DNA from: Haliotis cracherodii
Taxonomy: Eukaryota
Direction: 5' to 3'
Assembly (NCBI RefSeq): GCF_022045235.1
Contig: NW_027266275.1
Location: 74,338,001 to 74,402,000 of the forward strand
DNA length: 64,000 nt
In this document: piece after piece, positions 5,200-63,918 of the stretch
Layout of the letters: every line of letters starts with the position of its first letter
How positions within the stretch are numbered: the first letter of the stretch is position 1
The notes under the pieces: model-generated
Told to the model about the DNA's origin: nothing
The model's input: only the letters and a program-made list of their open reading frames with translations
Databases searched by the model: none
Position numbers and translations under genes: made by a program

Positions 5200-6090
5200 T
5201 GTTCCATGCTGTTCTAATATCGCCCAGTGTTACTTTCCGTTTCTCTCTCACATTCCACTCTAATGTCGCCCCTTGTTACATTTTGTTTTCTCACACATTC
5301 CGTTCTAATATCGCCCATTATTACTTCTTGTTTCTCTCACACATTCCACTCTTACATCGCTCATTGTTACTTTTTCTTTACTCACACATTCCACTCTAAT
5401 GTCGCCCATTGTTACTTTTTCTTTACTCACACATTCCACTCTTACATCGCCTATTGTTTTTTTTGTTTCTCTCACACATTCCACTCTTACATCGCCTATT
5501 GTTACTTTTTGTTTCTCTCTCACATTCCACTCTTACATCGCCCATTGTTACTTTTTGTTTCTCTCTCACATTCCACTCTTACATCGCCTATTGTTACTTT
5601 TTGTTCCTCTCTCACATTCCGCTCTTACATCGCCCATTGTTACTTTTTGTTTCTCTCTCACATTCCGCTCTTACATCGCCCATTGTTACTTTTTGTTCCT
5701 CTCACACATTCTGCTCTTACATCGCCTATTGTTACTTTTTGTTTCTCTCTCACATTCCGCTCTTACATCGCCCATTGTTACTTTTTGTTCCTCTCACACA
5801 TTCCGCTCTTACATCGCCGATTGTTACTTTTTGTTTCTCTCTCACATTCCGCTCTTACATCGCCCATTGTTACTTTTTGTTTCTCTCTCACATTCCGCTC
5901 TTACATCGCCCATTGTTACTTTTTGTTTCTCTCTCACATTCCGCTCTTACATCGCCCATTGTTACTTTTTGTTTCTCTCTCACATTCCGCTCTTACATCG
6001 CCCATTGTTACTTTTTGTTTCTCTCTCACATTCCGCTCTTACATCGCCTATTGTTACTCTTGTTGTTTCTTTCTAACATTCCGCTTTAAT
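5200..6090. repeat. Minisatellite, 46-bp unit ctcacattccgctcttacatcgcccattgttactttttgtttctct
   Basis: Period 46 (5841 to 5887); homogeneous centre with degenerate edges. Confidence 0.95.
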
Positions 6091-6972: not shown

Positions 6973-7172
6973 TTGTGTTTGTTTGTTTGTTTGTTGTTTT
7001 ACCTTGCACTCAGAAATATTCCAGATATATGGCGGCGGTCTGTAAATAATCGAGTCTGGACGATGACATGCATCAACCACGTCAGCGAACCTGACCACCC
7101 GATCCTGTCAGTCGCCCCTTGCGACAAGCATGGACAGCTGAAGACCAATTCTAACTCGGATCTTCACTAGTC
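6973..7172 (-). mobile_element. SINE-like family C copy (internal deletion)
   Basis: Homologous to 58022-58273. Confidence 0.75.
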
Positions 7173-24046: not shown

Positions 24047-24276
24047 AATGCTTGCCGTAAAAGGTGACTATGCTTGTCGTAAAAGGCGACTAAGGGGATC
24101 GGTTGGTCAGGCTCGCTGATTTGGTTGATGCATGTCATCGATCCCAATTGTGTGGATCGATGCTCATGATATCAATCACTGGATTGTCTGGTCCAGACTC
24201 GATTATTTTACAGACCGCCGTCATATAGCTGGAATATTACTGAGTGCAGCGTTAAACAACAAACCAACCAACTAAC
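24047..24276 (+). mobile_element. 5'-truncated SINE-like family C copy
   Basis: 14-bp TSD aacttctgtattat at 24033-24046 and 24277-24290; duplicated atgcttg.cgtaaaagg.gact hairpin. Confidence 0.85.
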
Positions 24277-24574
24277 AACTTCTGTATTATGTTATATTGA
24301 AACATGTGGTGATAGTCATGGCATATCATGAAAATAAACAATCATACAAGTAAACATTTCGGTAAGATTGAAAGGCCTGTAGCCCACAAGTGAGGTGTTG
24401 CTATCATTATCAGTGAATCTGCAGCAGCAAATACATGTATTTAGGGATTTAGGTTTACCATCATAGTGTATGTATTACCGCCAGTAAAACTGAGATAATA
24501 ATTACCTGGGGTGTTGAACAGATATACACACCGAACAGTCGATGAAGTTGTTAAGTAACAATCAACGGTTGCAA

Positions 24575-24740
24575 ACAAAAGCGACATAAAATTTACCATA
24601 TTTATTAGAAATCTGCTAAAAGCAGAGTTGATTGTACGATTCCGACTACCTCATTAGCATGTGTTAATGAATCACTATCAAATAGTGAAGATACCAGGTG
24701 TTCGCGAATAGGTGAGTGTATCCTGCCCCACCGGTGGCAG
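24575..24740 (-). mobile_element. 3' segment of the same Penelope-like family
   Basis: Reverse-complement homology to 39705-39845 (gaaatctgct.aaagc.gag, gattgta.ga.tccgactac, accaggtgt...gtatcctgcc). A related fragment lies at ~37363-37443 (+). Confidence 0.6.
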
Positions 24741-25237
24741 GACAATTCCATAGAGATGTTCACACGTATTTGGTGGTACTTTTTACTAAGTCACTCATCC
24801 AACCAAGCATACATTGATAAAAGACAGTTGTCATATCAATCTAAATATGACCATTATGTTGTATTGGTTATGATCCGTTTCGATTTCTCGAAGCAATGTT
24901 TTAAGGATTTCTCAAAGACAACAGTTTAGGAATACTCGATACAAGATTCAGCTTCATAAGCCTAGCACTTCGAGCCGAAATGAACAGGCATTGAACGAAC
25001 GCCGGACGGGAGACAGATAAAATTGTTATAACACGTATCGCATACATAATTTATATTTGGATCTGAGTTCTACGGACACATATCAGAGACGCCATTGTTG
25101 AGATTTTGAGCAGGTTATCAGTTTTATAACCTCTGGGATGAAAATGCAATCTGTTCTACTCTAAAAAAAATGTAATATGCGTTTCAACACAATTTACATA
25201 CTAAATATATATATATATATGTCCGTTATTCAGTTAT

Positions 25238-25281
25238 GGCCTGATGAGACTCGTACGTGGTACGAGTTGAAAGCGCTAGCC
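25238..25281 (+). ncRNA. Minimal type I hammerhead ribozyme (Penelope-associated type)
   Basis: Reads ggc-CTGATGA-gactcgtac(gtg)gtacgagtt-GAAA-gcgc-TA-gcc. It has a full catalytic core, a 9-bp stem II, a palindromic GCGC loop 3, a CUA cleavage triplet and stem I ggc/gcc. Confidence 0.8.
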
Positions 25282-26469
25282 TATTAAAACTGTGTTCAAT
25301 CTTACTCCATTTATTTAATTATATATATGTAGTGTTACTATGGAAAGCAATGTTCACGTTGCCATATTAATTCATGTATGTATCAATTAATGTCACAGGT
25401 GGAGATATAATCAGAAAATGTGATTAATTGTTTACAGTGTCTATAGACAGTCGTATAATGCAAACAAATGCCACTGTATTGATTTAAGTCATGTCTACGT
25501 TCATAGGACTTTTACCAATAATACTCGGCGTTTTGGCCTGAAAATAGGCACATGGCATTTATTTCCCATATTGTTTCAGTAAATCTAATTTATATCAGAT
25601 CACACATTAATGGATGAAAATTTTCTAAATATTTTTTTAATCAGATTCTCAATGTCGTATCCGAGCGGCCCAAGTTTAAAATCGCACAGGAAACATGAAC
25701 AACTTGATGTTGTTTGCGAGAGGTTGACCATTTACAAGGGGTTGACGACGGAAGGACGACGGGCGGGCAAAGGGTAATTCTGCATGGTTATAACTCACGT
25801 AGAAGTCATGAATAAACCAGGCCATCATGATTCACCGCGAAACTTTGTCAAAAGAAACCAAATGTCCCTCGTACGATATGAGAACATTGAGATGATATGA
25901 GATGATTGAGATCAATAAAAGCAGGCTTTGAGAAAAACAAATAATGTAAAAGGCGAACCAAAATCTGGTAGGGTGAGCATCTACAGTATCGGTGTGGGTT
26001 GGCTGGGGATGTGCATTATCGTTGGTTTTGAGTTGGTGGGGCTTTGTCTTCTATTCTTTTTAGATCAAATTATAGAATGTATGACATTCAAATTCAATCG
26101 GTCTATCTTAATATCATATGTCGAGCCAGAATATGAGAGGGACAAATATAAATGGTTTAAATTAAGTTTAAACACAATGCCCCGATGAACTATGTAGACA
26201 CAGACAGTTACTAATGATGGATAAGTAGAGTATGAGTTGAACCGTCCACAAGAATCAACGACGTATAGAAAATACAGAAATCACATCATAGAACATAACA
26301 TGGACAATACGAATTCTTCGCCCATTGGGAAAACGCTGTTAAGTGTTTTCTCCTACCCAAATTTACCCACTTGTTTGTAAGCACATCATGCAAACACTTC
26401 AGAAAGAATACTGTCAAATTTTATAGGAAACGATAATAAAGTTAGTACTGTATAGCGGTAGATCAATAG

Positions 26470-27896: not shown

Positions 27897-28745
27897 ATTC
27901 ATCGCAAACGTACAATGATGACACCAGGTGTTGGAGAACTACTATGAGAGTATCCTGCCCAACATGGTTTACAGGTCCGTATGACCAAGTCCTGTTCTAC
28001 CTTGTTCAGTGTCTCTACACATGTAGCTATGTATAGCTAATTCATCGCAAACGTACAATGATGACACCAGGTGTTGGAGAACTACTATGAGAGTATCCTG
28101 CCCAACATGGTTTACAGGTCCGTATGACCAAGTCCTGTTCTACCTTGTTCAGTGTCTCTACACATGTAGCTATGTATAGCTAATTCATCGCAAACGTACA
28201 ATGATGACACCAGGTGTTGGAGAACTACTATGAGAGTATCCTGCCCAACATGGTTTACAGGTCCGTATGACCAAGTCCTGTTCTACCTTGTTCAGTGTCT
28301 CTACACATGTAGCTATGTATAGCTAATTCATCGCAAACGTACAATGATGACACCAGGTGTTGGAGAACTACTATGAGAGTATCCTGCCCAACATGGTTTA
28401 CAGGTCCGTATGACCAAGTCCTGTTCTACCTTGTTCAGTGTCTCTACACATGTAGCTATGTATAGCTAATTCATCGCAAACGTACAATGATGACACCAGG
28501 TGTTGGAGAACTACTATGAGAGTATCCTGCCCAACATGGTATACAGGTCCGTATGACCAAGTCCTGTTCTATCTTGTTCAGTGTCTCTACATATGTAGCT
28601 ATGTATAGCTTATTCATCGCAAACGTACAATGATAAATCAGGTGTTGGAGAACTACTATGAGAGTATCCTGCCCAACATGGTTTACAGGTCCGTATGACC
28701 AAGCCCTGTGCTACCTTGTTCAGTATCTCTCCACAAGTAGCTATA
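27897..28745. repeat. Satellite, 143-bp unit, ~6 near-identical copies
   Basis: Units start at 27897, 28040, 28183 and onward. Confidence 0.95.
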
Positions 28746-33356: not shown

Positions 33357-35261
33357 NNNNNNNNNNNNNNNNNNNNNNNNNNNNNNNNNNNNNNNNNNNN
33401 NNNNNNNNNNNNNNNNNNNNNNNNNNNNNNNNNNNNNNNNNNNNNNNNNNNNNNNNNNNNNNNNNNNNNNNNNNNNNNNNNNNNNNNNNNNNNNNNNNNN
33501 NNNNNNNNNNNNCTCCTAGTATTCATACATATGGGCAGCTATAGGCGTACAGCATTAACCACTCAGTAAGTTCATACAGTCTAAATTCTCAAGCATTACT
33601 TACTTCCACTGGTATATTCGGTGTGTTCCTGGTCTGTGGTTAGCTATTGATAATGTGAAACTTTTGCAATGGAGCATGGTATTGATACGTGCAGGTCTTA
33701 CAACACAGGTGGTTGGCGGGGACGCGAAGGTCTTTGTAGCCAAGATAAATGTTGATATGAATTAATGAAGAAAGATGAGTGATACCATTACGCGCGGTAG
33801 ACATACATTTTAATGCTCATAGACAGCAGATCATCCGTGACTTAATGGTGTTCCTATTCTCCTAGACTGACACTTTATCAATATCACAGTCTCCCTGAAA
33901 GAAGCATCGGCATATCTCACGTCACACAGTTAGAACGCGAGCGTTAACGTGCTCGCTCAAACTGTGAACACAAAATAGACTGATTTGTATGAGTAAATTG
34001 ATATGTACACCCCGCGTTCTAAGTCAGTGAATTATCTTATACGCCATCTTCATGTCAATCGCTTTTCTGTCTTCTACAGAAACGGAAATCTTTATGTGCA
34101 TTGAAGGAATAACGGTTCTAAATCTGCAGCTGATGAATGAATAACATCGGGAATACGCGGATCTAGCAAAATCTATTTGACTGAAACAACCAATTAGATT
34201 CTTTGACATTTTATTAGCAGGATCTTCCGAAATGGAAAATACGTGTTTGTTTAAGCTTTTCTCTGAAACAATCAGTTCGTTTGCTGGAAATTGTGGAGAT
34301 AAAAAACAGTGCGACTTCAAACCCTTATGTTCTCTTTTTCTTAGGATGATAAAATAGAAGCTTTTACGGAAACATAACTGCACTGGAAGCCTGTTGCTAG
34401 GATCGATAATGTAATTGTTAGGACGACGGTAGTCAGTATCCGGAGCGGAAAAAACCGGGAATATCCGAACGAGCAGGAGAAGGAGGACAGTGTTCGTGCC
34501 TTTGTCGTAGCAGGCAATGTCCATGCTCACCAACAACGCTGATTGGGGGTGTGATTGACGCATTTCAGGCTATCATATTACCAACCCCAGTGTTTTTAGG
34601 GAGAGAATCCGTCCATCACGCCAAGGAATGTAACAGTGTAACGTTGAATTATAGGCGTGTGCCCGAGACCGTGGATGCCGGTAAATAAGGGTTGGCGACG
34701 TTAAGCAATGATGCACTTGCAGGGGTACTGTAATCCATCCTCATGCAAATGTGCCACATTAACTGGCCTTGTTCGACTTATTTATTATGGGAGACAACGT
34801 AAGGAAGCCATGATATGCCTAAATGCTTGTGTGTCACAAGAATTGTCTTTAGTCGAAATGTATTCATTCTATGAGACACGCCGTAATGAAACTACAGTGT
34901 TTCTCGCATGCTCAGCAGCAACAACAATTGATCTCTGTTGACACGTTTGCATTAACATGACGATGAAACTGCTCCAATGTATGTTTCACATGCTTGTCTG
35001 TCACAATAATTGGTTAGAGTCGACATGCTTGTTGTTAAATGTGGGAGATGAAAGTGTCCTGTTTCTCACATGGTTGTCCGTCTCACTCAGTCGTTTTGCT
35101 TTGGGTTTTGGGTTTCTGTGTCACCCACTATAACGGTAGCTGTCAGGTTCTTCACAACACATCTTCCTTGGATGTATCCGTGTCTTGCAATAAAACGAAA
35201 CTTAATCGTTTCTCCCATGCGTTTCCGTCTTAGTGGACGTGTGTCATGAGCACACGATATA

Positions 35262-37150
35262 ATGACATTGCCATGTTACCTATATACTGTCTGTCAACAT
35301 CTTTGCCGACGTGTTTCTTGGGGAAACAATATACTGACAATGTCATGTTACCTATATACTGTCTGTAGACATCTTTGCCGACGTGTTTCTTGGGAAAACA
35401 ATATACTGACAATGTCATGTTGCATATATACTGTCTGTAGACATCTTTGCCGATGTGTTTCTTGGGGAAACAATATACTGACAATGTCTTGTTGCTTATA
35501 TACTGTCTGAAAACATCTTTGCCGATGTGTTTCTTGGGGAAACAATATACTGACAATGTCATGTTGCATATATACTGTCTGTCAACATCTTTGCCGACGT
35601 GTTTCTTGGGGAAACAATATACTGACAATGTCATGTTGCATATATACTGTCTGTAGACATCTTTGCCGACGTGTTTCTTGGGGAAGCAATATACTGACAA
35701 TGTCTTGTTGCATATATACTGTCTGTAGACATCTTTGCCGACGTGTTTCTTGGGAAAACAATATACTGACAATGTCATGTTGCATATATACTGTCTGTCA
35801 ACATCTTTGCCGACGTGTTTCTTGGGGAAACAATATACTGACAATGTCATGTGGCATACATACTGTCTGTCAACATCTTTGCCGATGTGTTTCTTGGGGA
35901 AACAATATACTGACAATGTCATGTTGCATATATACTGTCTGTAGACATCTTTGCCGATGTATTTCTTGGGGAAACAATATACTGACAATGTCTTGTTGCT
36001 TATATACTATCTGAAAACATCTTTGCCGACGTGTTTCTTGGGGAAACAATATACTGACAATGTCATGTGGCATACATTCTGTCTGTCAACATCATTGCCG
36101 ACGTGTTTCTTGGGGAAACAATATACTGACAATGTCATGTTACCTATATACTGTCTGTAGACATCTTTGCCGACGTGTTTCTTGGGAAAACAATATACTG
36201 ACAATGTCATGTTGCATATATACTGTCTGTAGACATCTTTGCCGATGTGTTTCTTGGGGAAACAATATACTGACAATGTCTTGTTGCTTATATACTGTCT
36301 GAAAACATCTTTGCCGATGTGTTTCTTGGGGAAACAATATACTGACAATGTCATGTTGCATATATACTGTCTGTCAACATCTTTGCCGACGTGTTTCTTG
36401 GGGAAACAATATACTGACAATGTCATGTTGCATATATACTGTCTGTAGACATCTTTGCCGACGTGTTTCTTGGGGAAGCAATATACTGACAATGTCTTGT
36501 TGCATATATACTGTCTGTAGACATCTTTGCCGACGTGTTTCTTGGGAAAACAATATACTGACAATGTCATGTTGCATATATACTGTCTGTCAACATCTTT
36601 GCCGACGTGTTTCTTGGGGAAACAATATACTGACAATGTCATGTGGCATACATACTGTCTGTCAACATCTTTGCCGATGTGTTTCTTGGGGAAACAATAT
36701 ACTGACAATGTCATGTTACCTATATACTGTCTGTAGACATCTTTGCCGATGTATTTCTTGGGGAAACAATATACTGACAATGTCTTGTTGCTTATATACT
36801 GTCTGAAAACATCTTTGCCGACGTGTTTCTTGGGGAAACAATATACTGACAATGTCATGTGGCATACATTCTGTCTGTCAACATCATTGCCGACGTGTTT
36901 CTTGGGGAAGCAATATATTGAAAATGTCATGTTGCATATATACTGTCTGTAAACATCATTGCCGACGTGTTTCTTGGGGAAACAATATACTGACAATGTC
37001 ATGTTGCATATATACTGTCTGTCAACATCATTGCCGACGTGTTTCTTGGGGAAACAATATACTGACAATGTCATGTTGCCTATATACTGTCTGGCAACAT
37101 CGTTGCCGACGTGTTTCTTGGGGAAGCAATATATTGACAGAGTCATGTTT
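35262..37150. repeat. Minisatellite, 72-bp unit, ~26 copies, with a 792-bp higher-order repeat
   Basis: Unit atgtcatgttgcatatatactgtctgtagacatctttgccgacgtgtttcttggggaaacaatatactgaca; variant patterns recur at +792. Confidence 0.95.
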
Positions 37151-41982: not shown

Positions 41983-42260
41983 GACCCGGGAAGATCCTGG
42001 GTGAAATAGGTCTTCAACAACCCATGCTTGCCGTAAAAGGCGTAGAGGTGACTAACGGGATCGACTGGTAAGGCTCGCTGACTTGGTTGATGGATGTCAT
42101 CGTATCCCAATTAAGTGGATCGATGCTCATGATGTCAATCACTGGACTATCTGATCCAGACTCGATTATTTACAAACTGTCGTCATATAGATGGAATATT
42201 GTTGAGTGCGGCCTAAAACAAACAAACAATCAAACAAAAAACAACAACAAACAAACAAAA
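41983..42260 (+). mobile_element. SINE-like family C copy
   Basis: gacccgggaagatcctgggtgaaataggtcttcaacaacccatgcttg... followed by an (aaac)n tail. Confidence 0.8.
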
Positions 42261-45529: not shown

Positions 45530-45644
45530 ATGCAATGCAGGAAGATGTTCGAAGTTTGGAAAATTCCCCGTTGTTTTGTGTCCCTGCTTCCAACAGCCCA
45601 AGCAGTGCTGCTGTTGCTGTTGCTGTCGTCGCTGTCACAATCAG
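45530..45644 (+). CDS. First coding exon (signal peptide) of a nicotinic acetylcholine receptor-like Cys-loop channel subunit
   Basis: ATG at 45530 (alternative ATG at 45545) encodes MQCRKMFEVWKIPRCFVSLLPTAQAVLLLLLLSSLSQS, a hydrophobic signal-peptide-like stretch. It ends at a strong donor G|GTATGT (45644/45645). The 115 nt leave phase 1, which matches the phase-1 acceptor at 63575 (G+TG=Val). An upstream acceptor (tttttcttgcag, ending 45175) may define the exon start. Confidence 0.7.
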
Positions 45645-54247: not shown

Positions 54248-54500
54248 TGTTGTTTGTTTGTTTGATGTTTAACGTCGCACTCAGCAATATTCCCACTATA
54301 TGAAAGCGGTCTGTATATAATCGAGTCTTGACCAGACAATTCAGTGGTTGAGCATCGATTCACGCAGTTTGGATACGATCAACCAAGTCAGCGAGCATGA
54401 CCACTCGATCCCGTTAATCGCCTCTTACGACAAGCATAATCGCCTTTTACGACAAGCATGGATTGCTGAAGACCTATTCTAGCCCGTATCTTCACGGGTC
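54248..54500 (-). mobile_element. SINE-like family C copy with a duplicated hairpin module
   Basis: The - strand reads gacccgtgaagatacgggctagaataggtcttcagcaatccatgcttgtcgtaaaaggcgattatgcttgtcgtaagaggcgattaacgggatc. Confidence 0.8.
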
Positions 54501-58021: not shown

Positions 58022-58273
58022 TTTGTTTGTTGTTTAACGCCGCACTCAGCAATATTCCAGCTATATGACGGCGGTCTGTAAATAATCGAGTCTGTTCCAC
58101 ACAATCAAGTGATTGATATCAAGAACATTGATCTACGCAATTGGGATATGATGACATGCATCAACCAAGACAGTGAGCGAGCCTGGCCACCCGATCCCGT
58201 TAGTCGCACCTCTCGTATTTCCGGCAAGCATGGGTTGCTGAAGATCTATTCTAACCCGGATTTTCACGGGTCC
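58022..58273 (-). mobile_element. SINE-like family C (non-tRNA structured head), full length
   Basis: The - strand reads gacccgtgaaaatccgggttagaatagatcttcagcaacccatgcttg...gcgactaacgggatcgggtgg...ctggaatattgctgagtgcggcgttaaacaacaaac. Imperfect TSD agacaa(c/t)atgt. Confidence 0.8.
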
Positions 58274-59730: not shown

Positions 59731-61207
59731 TAGCATGACTGAAATGTGGGTCTTCAATACTAGCAAGACTGAAATGTGGGTCTTCAATACTAGCAAGACT
59801 GAAATGTGGGTCTTCAATACTAGCATGACTGAAATGTGGGTCTTCAATACTAGCATGACTGAAATGTGGGTCTTCAATACTAGCAAGACTGAAATGTGGG
59901 TCTTCAATACTAGCAAGACTGAAATGTGGGTCTTCAATACTAGCAAGACTGAAATGTGGGTCTTCAATACTAGCAAGACTGAAATGTGGGTCTTCAATAC
60001 TAGCAAGACTGAATATGGGTCTTCAATACTAGCATGACTGAAATGTGGGTCTTCAATACTAGCAAGACTGAAATGTGGGTCTTCAATACTAGCAAGACTG
60101 AAATGTGGGTCTTCAATACTAGCAAGACTGAAATGTGGGTCTTCAATACTAGCATGACTGAAATGTGGGTCTTCAATACTAGCATGACTGAAATGTGGGT
60201 CTTCAATACTAGCATGACTGAAATGTGGGTCTTCAATACTAGCATGACTGAAATGTGGGTCTTCAATACTAGCATGACTGAATATGGGTCTTCAATACTA
60301 GCATGACTGAATATGGGTCTTCAATACTAGCATGACTGAAATGTGGGTCTTCAATACTAGCATGACTGAAATGTGGGTCTTCAATACTAGCATGATTGAA
60401 TATGGGTCTTCAATACTAGCAAGACTGAAATGTGGGTCTTCAATACTAGCATGACTGAAATGTGGGTCTTCAATGCTAGCATGACTGAAATGTGGGTCTT
60501 CAATACTAGCATGACTGAATATGGGTCTTCAATACTAGCAAGACTGAAATGTGGGTCTTCAATACTAGTAGGACTGAATGTGGGTTTTCAATACTAGCAT
60601 GACTGAAATGTGGGTCTTCAATACCAACATCACTTAAATGTAGGTCTTCAATACTAGCATGACTGAAATGTGGGTCTTCAATACTAGCAAGACTGAAATG
60701 TGGGTCTTCAATACTAGCAAGACTGAAATGTGGGTCTTCAATACTAGCAAGACTGAAATGTGGGTCTTCAATACTAGCATGACTGAATGTGAGTCTTCAA
60801 AACTCCATGACTGAAATGTTGGTCTTCCATACCAGGATGACTTAAATGGGTCTTCAAAATTGGCATGTGGTATTTATAAGCCACTCTTATATTAACAAAG
60901 TCTTTTTTAAACGTTAAATTTAGATAATGTGCGAAGTTTTCAGTTGCTAAAGAGTAGCTTTATTATATAGAACTTAATGTTATTTCTGGATGAATAATAT
61001 TATTTCTATTAGGTTTCCAACACTTATCAGCAAGACTGAAATGTGGGTCTTCAATACTAGCAAGACTGAAATGTGGGTCTTCAATACTAGCAAGACTGAA
61101 TGTGAGTCTTCAAAACTCCATGACTGAAATGTGGGTCTTCCATACCAGGATGACTTAAATGGGTCTTCAAAACTGGCATGTGGTATTTATAAGCCACTCT
61201 TATATTA
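59731..61207. repeat. Minisatellite, 30-bp unit tagcaagactgaaatgtgggtcttcaatac, with a duplicated terminal block
   Basis: About 36 copies up to ~60860, then a second block at 61030-61207. Confidence 0.95.
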
Positions 61208-63460: not shown

Positions 63461-63574
63461 CAACCTGTGTCAAACAACGTTTTCCAATATGTAATCAAGA
63501 CAGTCAAAACTCTTAATCCTGTTCCTCATCTATCTTCGAGTCATGTAGACAGATGTATTATTCTCGTGTTTCAG

Positions 63575-63918
63575 TGAGGCCCACAGAAGGACAGGGCGGC
63601 ATAGACGACCCGGCATCTCAATCCAGGGAGAGTGTAGAGGACCAACTACAGAACAGCAGTGGGGTGCCAGTGAAGAACAGCGTACACGAACGCAGCGTGG
63701 AGCGGTTTCCCCTGCACCTTCCACCTAAGCAGGCAATATCGACTGAGAAAATCCTCATTAAAAAGTTATTGGAGCGTTACGAACGCCAGGGACGAGTGGG
63801 TCGACCGGTGATACACACTAACGACAACCTCACCGTTTACTTTGGCCTTTCACTCATACAGATTCTAGACGTAGACGAAACAAACCAAGTACTGAAAACA
63901 AATATATGGTATCACTAT
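63575..63918 (+). CDS. Exon encoding the N-terminal extracellular ligand-binding domain of a nicotinic acetylcholine receptor-type subunit (gene runs off the window)
   Basis: Acceptor tgtttcag|TG and donor TAT|GTAAGT. The translation includes TEKILIKKLLERYERQGRVGRPVIHTNDNLTVYFGLSLIQILDVDETNQVLKTNIWYHY, i.e. helix 1, the RPV motif and the beta1-beta2 region (LxLxQIxDVDExNQxLxTNxW) of Cys-loop receptors. Confidence 0.93.

Follow-up and report, generated by a model that had tools for sequence, protein, structure and literature searches.

The type I hammerhead motif found in the 64-kb window (the whole stretch of DNA that was analysed) belongs to a 104-nt piece that is very probably the 5'-truncated 3' end of a Penelope-like retrotransposon (PLE), inserted into a TA run and left there as an inert remnant. 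The reverse transcriptase (RT) would have stopped early, so that this copy is likely an inert carry-over of the hammerhead of its parent. The relevant features of the window, including two exons of a neighboring receptor gene, are the following (pLTR, pseudo-LTR):

25219..25322, + strand: putative 5'-truncated 3' end (104 nt) of a Penelope-like pLTR (BLAST versus full-length copies)
25205..25220, no strand: left (AT)8 run, target site (sequence; empty site in organism C)
25320..25328, no strand: right TA run, 9 nt (sequence; joint 25211->25320)
25238..25281, + strand: type I hammerhead motif (sequence; descriptor scan with shuffles; 82 exact copies of the 38-nt core)
25238-40 and 25279-81, + strand: stem I, ggc and gcc (sequence)
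25241..25247, + strand: core CUGAUGA (sequence)
25248..25268, + strand: helix II of 9 bp with a closing G.U pair and a loop of 3 nt (pair probabilities; copies)
25269..25278, + strand: GAAA (25269-72), palindrome AGCGCU (25272-25277) and A25278 (sequence; self-duplex energy; palindromes of relatives)
45530..45643, + strand: first coding exon of a nicotinic acetylcholine receptor-like gene (86.8% to P0001 residues 1-38)
63571..63918, + strand: second coding exon of the same receptor gene (86.2% to P0001 38-153; Neur_chan_LBD, E=1.6e-8)

The letters and coordinates that the initial annotation had quoted for the hammerhead were correct on re-reading the window sequence. The core and helices I and II of a type I minimal hammerhead (CUGANGA, GAAA, UH) are present in the window copy. 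The bare core pattern is found at chance level (five matches in the window versus 6.0 expected). The full descriptor, which demands the core, a stem II of at least 4, a stem I of at least 3 and a palindromic helix III, has two matches in the real window and none in 300 dinucleotide shuffles, which bears out the claim of a minimal hammerhead; when the palindrome is dropped, 10 of the 300 shuffles contain a match. The motif at 25238-25281 is thus real and beyond chance. Cleavage is predicted 3' of A25278 (after CUA), and the AGCGCU at 25272-25277, whose self-duplex has a computed energy of -8.3 kcal/mol, is the predicted helix III of a dimer. In the monomer, the predicted pair probabilities are 0.96-1.0 for stem II and 0.17 for stem I, and the fold stability of the 99-nt piece is the same as that of its shuffles (z 0.02).

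Stem II had been described as perfect with one G-U pair. The 9 bp are confirmed, but the G.U occupies the closing position 10.1-11.1, where G-C is the norm. A G.U at this position lowers the hammerhead rate. The G10.1-C11.1 pair, highly conserved although not absolute in type I hammerheads, is therefore lacking in the window motif; among the distinct family copies, the closing pair is G.U in 43 of 46 and G-C in one. The search with the Rfam hammerhead models gave no match, either across the window at the gathering score or across positions 24500-26000 at E<=10. Since these models miss this variant, the Rfam result was not counted against the motif.

The motif proved to be repeated across the genome: the 38-nt core has 82 exact copies and a relaxed core pattern has 120 matches, the reversed-pattern controls giving 0 in both cases. 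A similarity search against the own genome, in which 40 of 511 candidates were scored, returned at least 46 matches; identity was 97-100% for the best 40. In 61 matches of another relaxed pattern there is an A instead of the T at 25282, giving a 4-bp stem I; the window copy belongs to the T type (stem I of 3 bp). The ends of the copies were surveyed at 30 loci chosen by their order along the genome, two of which are the arms of one inverted locus. Upstream of the core, similarity to the full-length copy extends from 4 to more than 1,500 nt (median 168), it reaches the ORF in 18 of the 30 loci and exceeds 500 nt in 9, and it amounts to 22 nt in the window copy. The 3' ends coincide at one common place in 20 loci, include an added tail of about 40 nt in 8 and fall earlier in the remaining 2. 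Besides, (TA)3 is present within 20 nt past the element end in 15 of the 30 loci versus 92 of 3,199 window tiles (2.9%). The copies, with a shared 3' end, form a continuum of 5'-truncated lengths in which the window copy lies at the short extreme.

This continuum bears on the suggestion that the piece is a small non-autonomous element (a non-LTR retrozyme) amplifying as its own unit. In eight of the 30 loci the element begins less than about 30 nt from the core, two same-strand copies lie 171 nt apart at a duplicated place (L021), and retrozymes have been reported to derive from pLTRs (bioRxiv 10.64898/2026.07.22.740005). However, there is no common 5' end, since the 5' ends run on continuously into the ORF; a same-strand hammerhead pair appears in only one of 90 locus records (L021), and the window copy is single, with no tandem array in the window. 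The tiny non-autonomous element proposed in the initial annotation did not find support in these data, and we regard this origin as very unlikely. Same-strand pLTR ends 171 nt apart were observed at two duplicated places of contig C25 (L038:4190-4457 and L039:3381-3648), this duplicated pair being the only retrozyme-like pair seen.

The expected covariation in the stems was not found within the family: a double change was present in one of 12 pairs, a value reached by 231 of 500 shuffles. The set was made up of 46 of 47 distinct sequences of about 95% identity, one with a 2-nt deletion having been left out. The selection of its rows relied on patterns in which the core and a part of stem I are constant. 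Such a lack of covariation is expected of copies decaying after insertion.

The parent of these copies could be recognized in longer members of the family. Copy L033 is full length (about 4.2 kb) and contains direct pLTRs of 430 nt that are 97.9% identical, with the motif in each and TA runs outside; in L031 the pLTRs are inverted. The parent ORF scores above the Pfam cut-off for GIY-YIG (27.7 bits versus 22.6) and below it for RVT_1 (E=1.5e-4), and it carries the motifs GLKF and DKG and the linker CGDKRCLTC. RT with a C-terminal GIY-YIG, direct or inverted pLTRs, an optional tail and variable 5' truncation are features of EN+ Penelope-like elements (PMC8557442). The pLTRs of L033 and L031, the GIY-YIG ORF and the TA bias agree with the proposal that a type I hammerhead with a palindromic helix III marks the pLTR of a microsatellite-targeting PLE. 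Every long family copy translated carried stops or frameshifts, so that no active parent was found.

Over its 104 nt, the window piece is 98.1% identical to the 3' pLTR of L033, and it shows one difference in 99 nt with respect to the commonest copy sequence. It had been interpreted as a solo pLTR, which is right only in a loose sense, since just a quarter of the pLTR is present, at the end of the truncation series. A true solo pLTR would come from recombination between the repeats of a once full-length insertion, and full-length copies do possess direct repeats. However, the window holds 104 of the approximately 430 nt and no tail, neither an RT nor a nuclease remnant was found in its 64 kb, and the size of 104 nt fits the truncation series. 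Although a solo pLTR could conceivably come from a parent whose 5' repeat was very short, such an origin is scarcely credible, and truncation during reverse transcription is the preferred reading.

Protein relatives of the parent ORF are numerous (617 at E<=1e-20), and the named ones are mostly from bivalves or their symbiont assemblies. The family protein is about 45-50% identical to the bivalve-labelled relatives and up to 73% to others. A CX2-5CxxC linker (CGDKRCLTC in the parent) precedes GIY-YIG in 119 of 120 relatives; such a linker is described for Neptune and Nematis elements (PMC8557442). The spacing from this linker to the next Cys is 24 residues in the parent, 25 and 27 in two Neptune rows and 7 in two Nematis rows of the PMC8557442 supplement. 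A Neptune-type (TA)n insertion bias is also apparent, both in the surveyed loci (half of them, against the 2.9% background) and in the TA nature of the empty site. The parent family likely belongs to the Neptune clade, an assignment based on motif and linker spacing and not on a tree.

In L033, an ORF1 of about 425 codons (L033:2857-4132) overlaps the RT-nuclease frame (L033:4020-6379), which lies in the -1 frame of ORF1 and has no ATG before GLKF. The heptamer U_UUU_UUA is found near L033:4063-4069; nine of 15 family copies have it in register, and an extra U is present in 2 more. Among relatives, a slippery heptamer occurs at the -1 register in 25 of 34 (21 of them U_UUU_UUR) versus 3 and 4 in the other phases, 4 further loci with too short upstream DNA having been skipped. 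The junction between ORF1 and the RT-nuclease frame is likely a programmed -1 frameshift. The idea that ORF1 is joined by a frameshift in PLEs is contained in the legend of Fig. 1 of PMC8557442; literature searches combining Penelope-like with ribosomal or slippery frameshift returned no match, and figures or supplements may name the family or the frameshift of the clade.

The insertion site itself is informative. The initial annotation had placed the element at 25221-25319: the location is right, and BLAST to full-length copies widens it to 25219-25322, although the ends blur into the TA runs because the first two and the last three bases also fit TA. The (TA)n reported on both sides is confirmed on the left as (AT)8, but the right run consists of only nine alternating bases. 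In the related organism C, one contig in each of two runs (X15 and X17) joins 25211 to 25320 and skips 108 nt, the joint having 11 ambiguous TA letters; the X15 contig covers both flanks, which differ by about 4% from those of the window. The empty site is an uninterrupted TA run. The filled site has 4-9 extra TA bases with respect to it, depending on where the ends of the element are drawn, and a target duplication of 4-9 nt likely includes the right TA run.

Contigs that pass from flanking DNA into the element were obtained on both sides in the three runs of organism A and on the left side in two of the three runs of organism B (X7 and X11); in the third (X8), the left contig ends at 25220 and positions 25342-25379 are uncovered. 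The junction contigs of X2, X3, X6, X7 and X11 include 25-27 element letters, below the 31-letter bridging criterion. No empty-site joint was listed among the six runs of organisms A and B. The summed contig depth over the element is about 1,000-5,000 times that of the flanks, a figure that is no copy number. Since some related organisms have the insertion and another lacks it, it constitutes a presence/absence marker.

Other repeats were observed in the window. One short interspersed repeat occurs at 24050-24260, 42081-42206, 58045-58169, 54280-54340 and 7009-7060, and also near many of the copy loci. Minisatellite arrays with periods of 29-143 nt are situated at 1028-1900, 5219-6085, 27897-28744, 35236-37149 and 59731-60857, and they account for the long window ORFs that overlap them.

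Published work on PLEs suggests how the window copy could have been generated. The GIY-YIG nuclease would cut an AT-rich site, the RT would copy the element RNA from near the 3' end of the pLTR, and reverse transcription would halt after about 100 nt, leaving a 5'-truncated end in the TA run. Purified Poseidon protein cuts AT-rich DNA and begins reverse transcription internally, and such an internal start would explain the tail (PMC11167929). The linker has been hypothesised to steer Neptune to microsatellites (PMC8557442). In the parent RNA, two hammerheads would pair via AGCGCU and cut after CUA, trimming tandem precursor transcripts. PLE hammerheads have been proposed to process precursor RNA, and most genomic motifs are single and have been ascribed to truncated PLEs; single minimal PLE hammerheads showed no cleavage in vitro and dimers showed low cleavage (PMC4209133). 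Folding gave -32.7 kcal/mol for the double hammerhead, -32.4 for two monomers (2 x -16.2) and -39.1 for an inactive dimer. As the double hammerhead is no stabler than the monomers and weaker than the inactive dimer, activity is predicted to be marginal. Because these energies give the dimer no advantage, cleavage as a dimer in the parent RNA is put forward by analogy and from the conservation of the palindrome. The window copy, devoid of an upstream pLTR or a cis partner, would undergo little or no cleavage even if transcribed.

As the initial annotation had pointed out, the first coding exon of the receptor-like gene is on the strand of the motif, 20.2 kb downstream. The best relative of this receptor-like subunit is labelled Haliotis rubra, and no further exons were found in the 64-kb window. 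Nicotinic receptor-like genes form a cluster with at least seven members at G000:C12:74.09-74.82 Mb. On the other side of the motif, the closest paralog exon among the matches listed is located about 204 kb upstream and belongs to the opposite strand; since the window gene on the + strand faces away from this - strand paralog, the motif would lie between head-to-head genes of the cluster.

Such a position raises the question of co-option: the motif, either by itself or paired in trans with RNA of the transposon, might now cleave the pre-mRNA of the receptor or some upstream transcript. Besides its strand and its location 20 kb upstream, the intact core, the recurrence of the left junction in all three runs of organism A and two of three of organism B, and the 81 identical partner cores elsewhere in the genome would be in accordance with such a role. 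However, the site is empty in organism C, a single difference over 99 nt is usual within the family, so that intactness needs no selection, and strand agreement with the receptor is a coin toss. In addition, no cleavage in vitro was seen with single minimal motifs (PMC4209133), and stem I of the window motif is predicted to be weak (probability 0.17). Co-option is extremely unlikely, and absence in organism C together with ordinary divergence gives no sign of it at the sequence level. The more specific scenario, in which a 5'-UTR intron spans the motif and pairing in trans via AGCGCU with transposon RNA cuts the receptor pre-mRNA when the family is expressed, strains belief further still; if true, such trans-cleavage would be of wide interest.

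Hammerheads were also found in other families. A sister PLE family of the same genome, with 48% protein identity, is represented by L222 (G000:C14:4174393-4179657, - strand), which has an open RT-nuclease frame of 785 codons. Its hammerhead is built differently, with stem I aca/ugu, a G-C-closed stem II and the palindrome AGUACU. L222 also has a U_UUU_UUA site. Among metagenome or MAG relatives, a core with palindrome and stem I (stem II not being demanded) was found within 500 nt 3' of the nuclease in 14 of the 33 that could be evaluated, compared with 1 of 33 on the antisense strand and 2 of 6,600 shuffles; 3 more relatives had less than 200 nt downstream. Five different palindromes are represented among these 14, of which 2 are identical, and no match to the descriptor was found in the other 19. 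A stricter descriptor was matched in 14 of 50 relatives. The hammerhead structure appears to be kept between families with different stems and palindromes, without a signal within the family, the paired-stem differences between families having been read family by family and not scored on an alignment.

Penelope-like contigs with RT, some of them with hammerheads, were observed inside bacterial MAG records (L211-L220); they are likely host DNA binned into bacterial MAGs. In the window, another minimal hammerhead, unrelated to the one described above, is present on the - strand at 52918-52879 (stem I cac/gug, palindrome ACGU), inside a degenerate inverted-repeat element. In relatives of this element at 70-79% (40 of 519 candidates scored), the motif occurs on both strands, and the element is likely a pair of inverted pLTRs from another PLE family.

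Hammerheads in pLTRs, scattered truncated copies and TA targeting are already in print (PMC4209133, PMC8557442), and the window piece, one more truncated Penelope end among more than 100 genome copies, matters little by itself. No report of an abalone hammerhead appeared among the matches listed in a literature search for hammerhead plus Haliotis (titles and abstract starts). As judged from its sequence, the parent shows the features examined for an EN+ PLE whose pLTR bears a hammerhead, except for the G-C closing pair. Like the PLE hammerheads described in PMC4209133, those of this family are located in the pLTRs of RT plus GIY-YIG elements, combine a long helix II, a short helix I and a palindromic helix III region, and appear mostly as single motifs from truncated copies, but also as inverted pairs. 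The family copies are homogeneous, as in D. virilis (PMC4209133). They differ from the PLE hammerheads of that report in having G.U at 10.1-11.1, where G-C is usual, and no extra base between 9 and 10.1. With the Neptune-clade EN+ PLEs the parent shares the C-terminal GIY-YIG and the CX2-5CxxC linker, direct or inverted pLTRs, a 30-40-nt tail and a microsatellite bias (PMC8557442, PMC3846280), as well as an ORF1 joined by frameshift (PMC8557442). Non-LTR retrozymes similarly contain a type I hammerhead, are non-coding and are related to pLTRs (PMC7229834; bioRxiv 10.64898/2026.07.22.740005). However, they are tandem repeats of 150-450 bp that give circular RNAs (PMC7229834), whereas the window piece is a single truncated end. 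With regard to PLE hammerheads, the seven natural helix III palindromes and the G.U variant form a series with which the unproven in-vivo dimer model could be tested.
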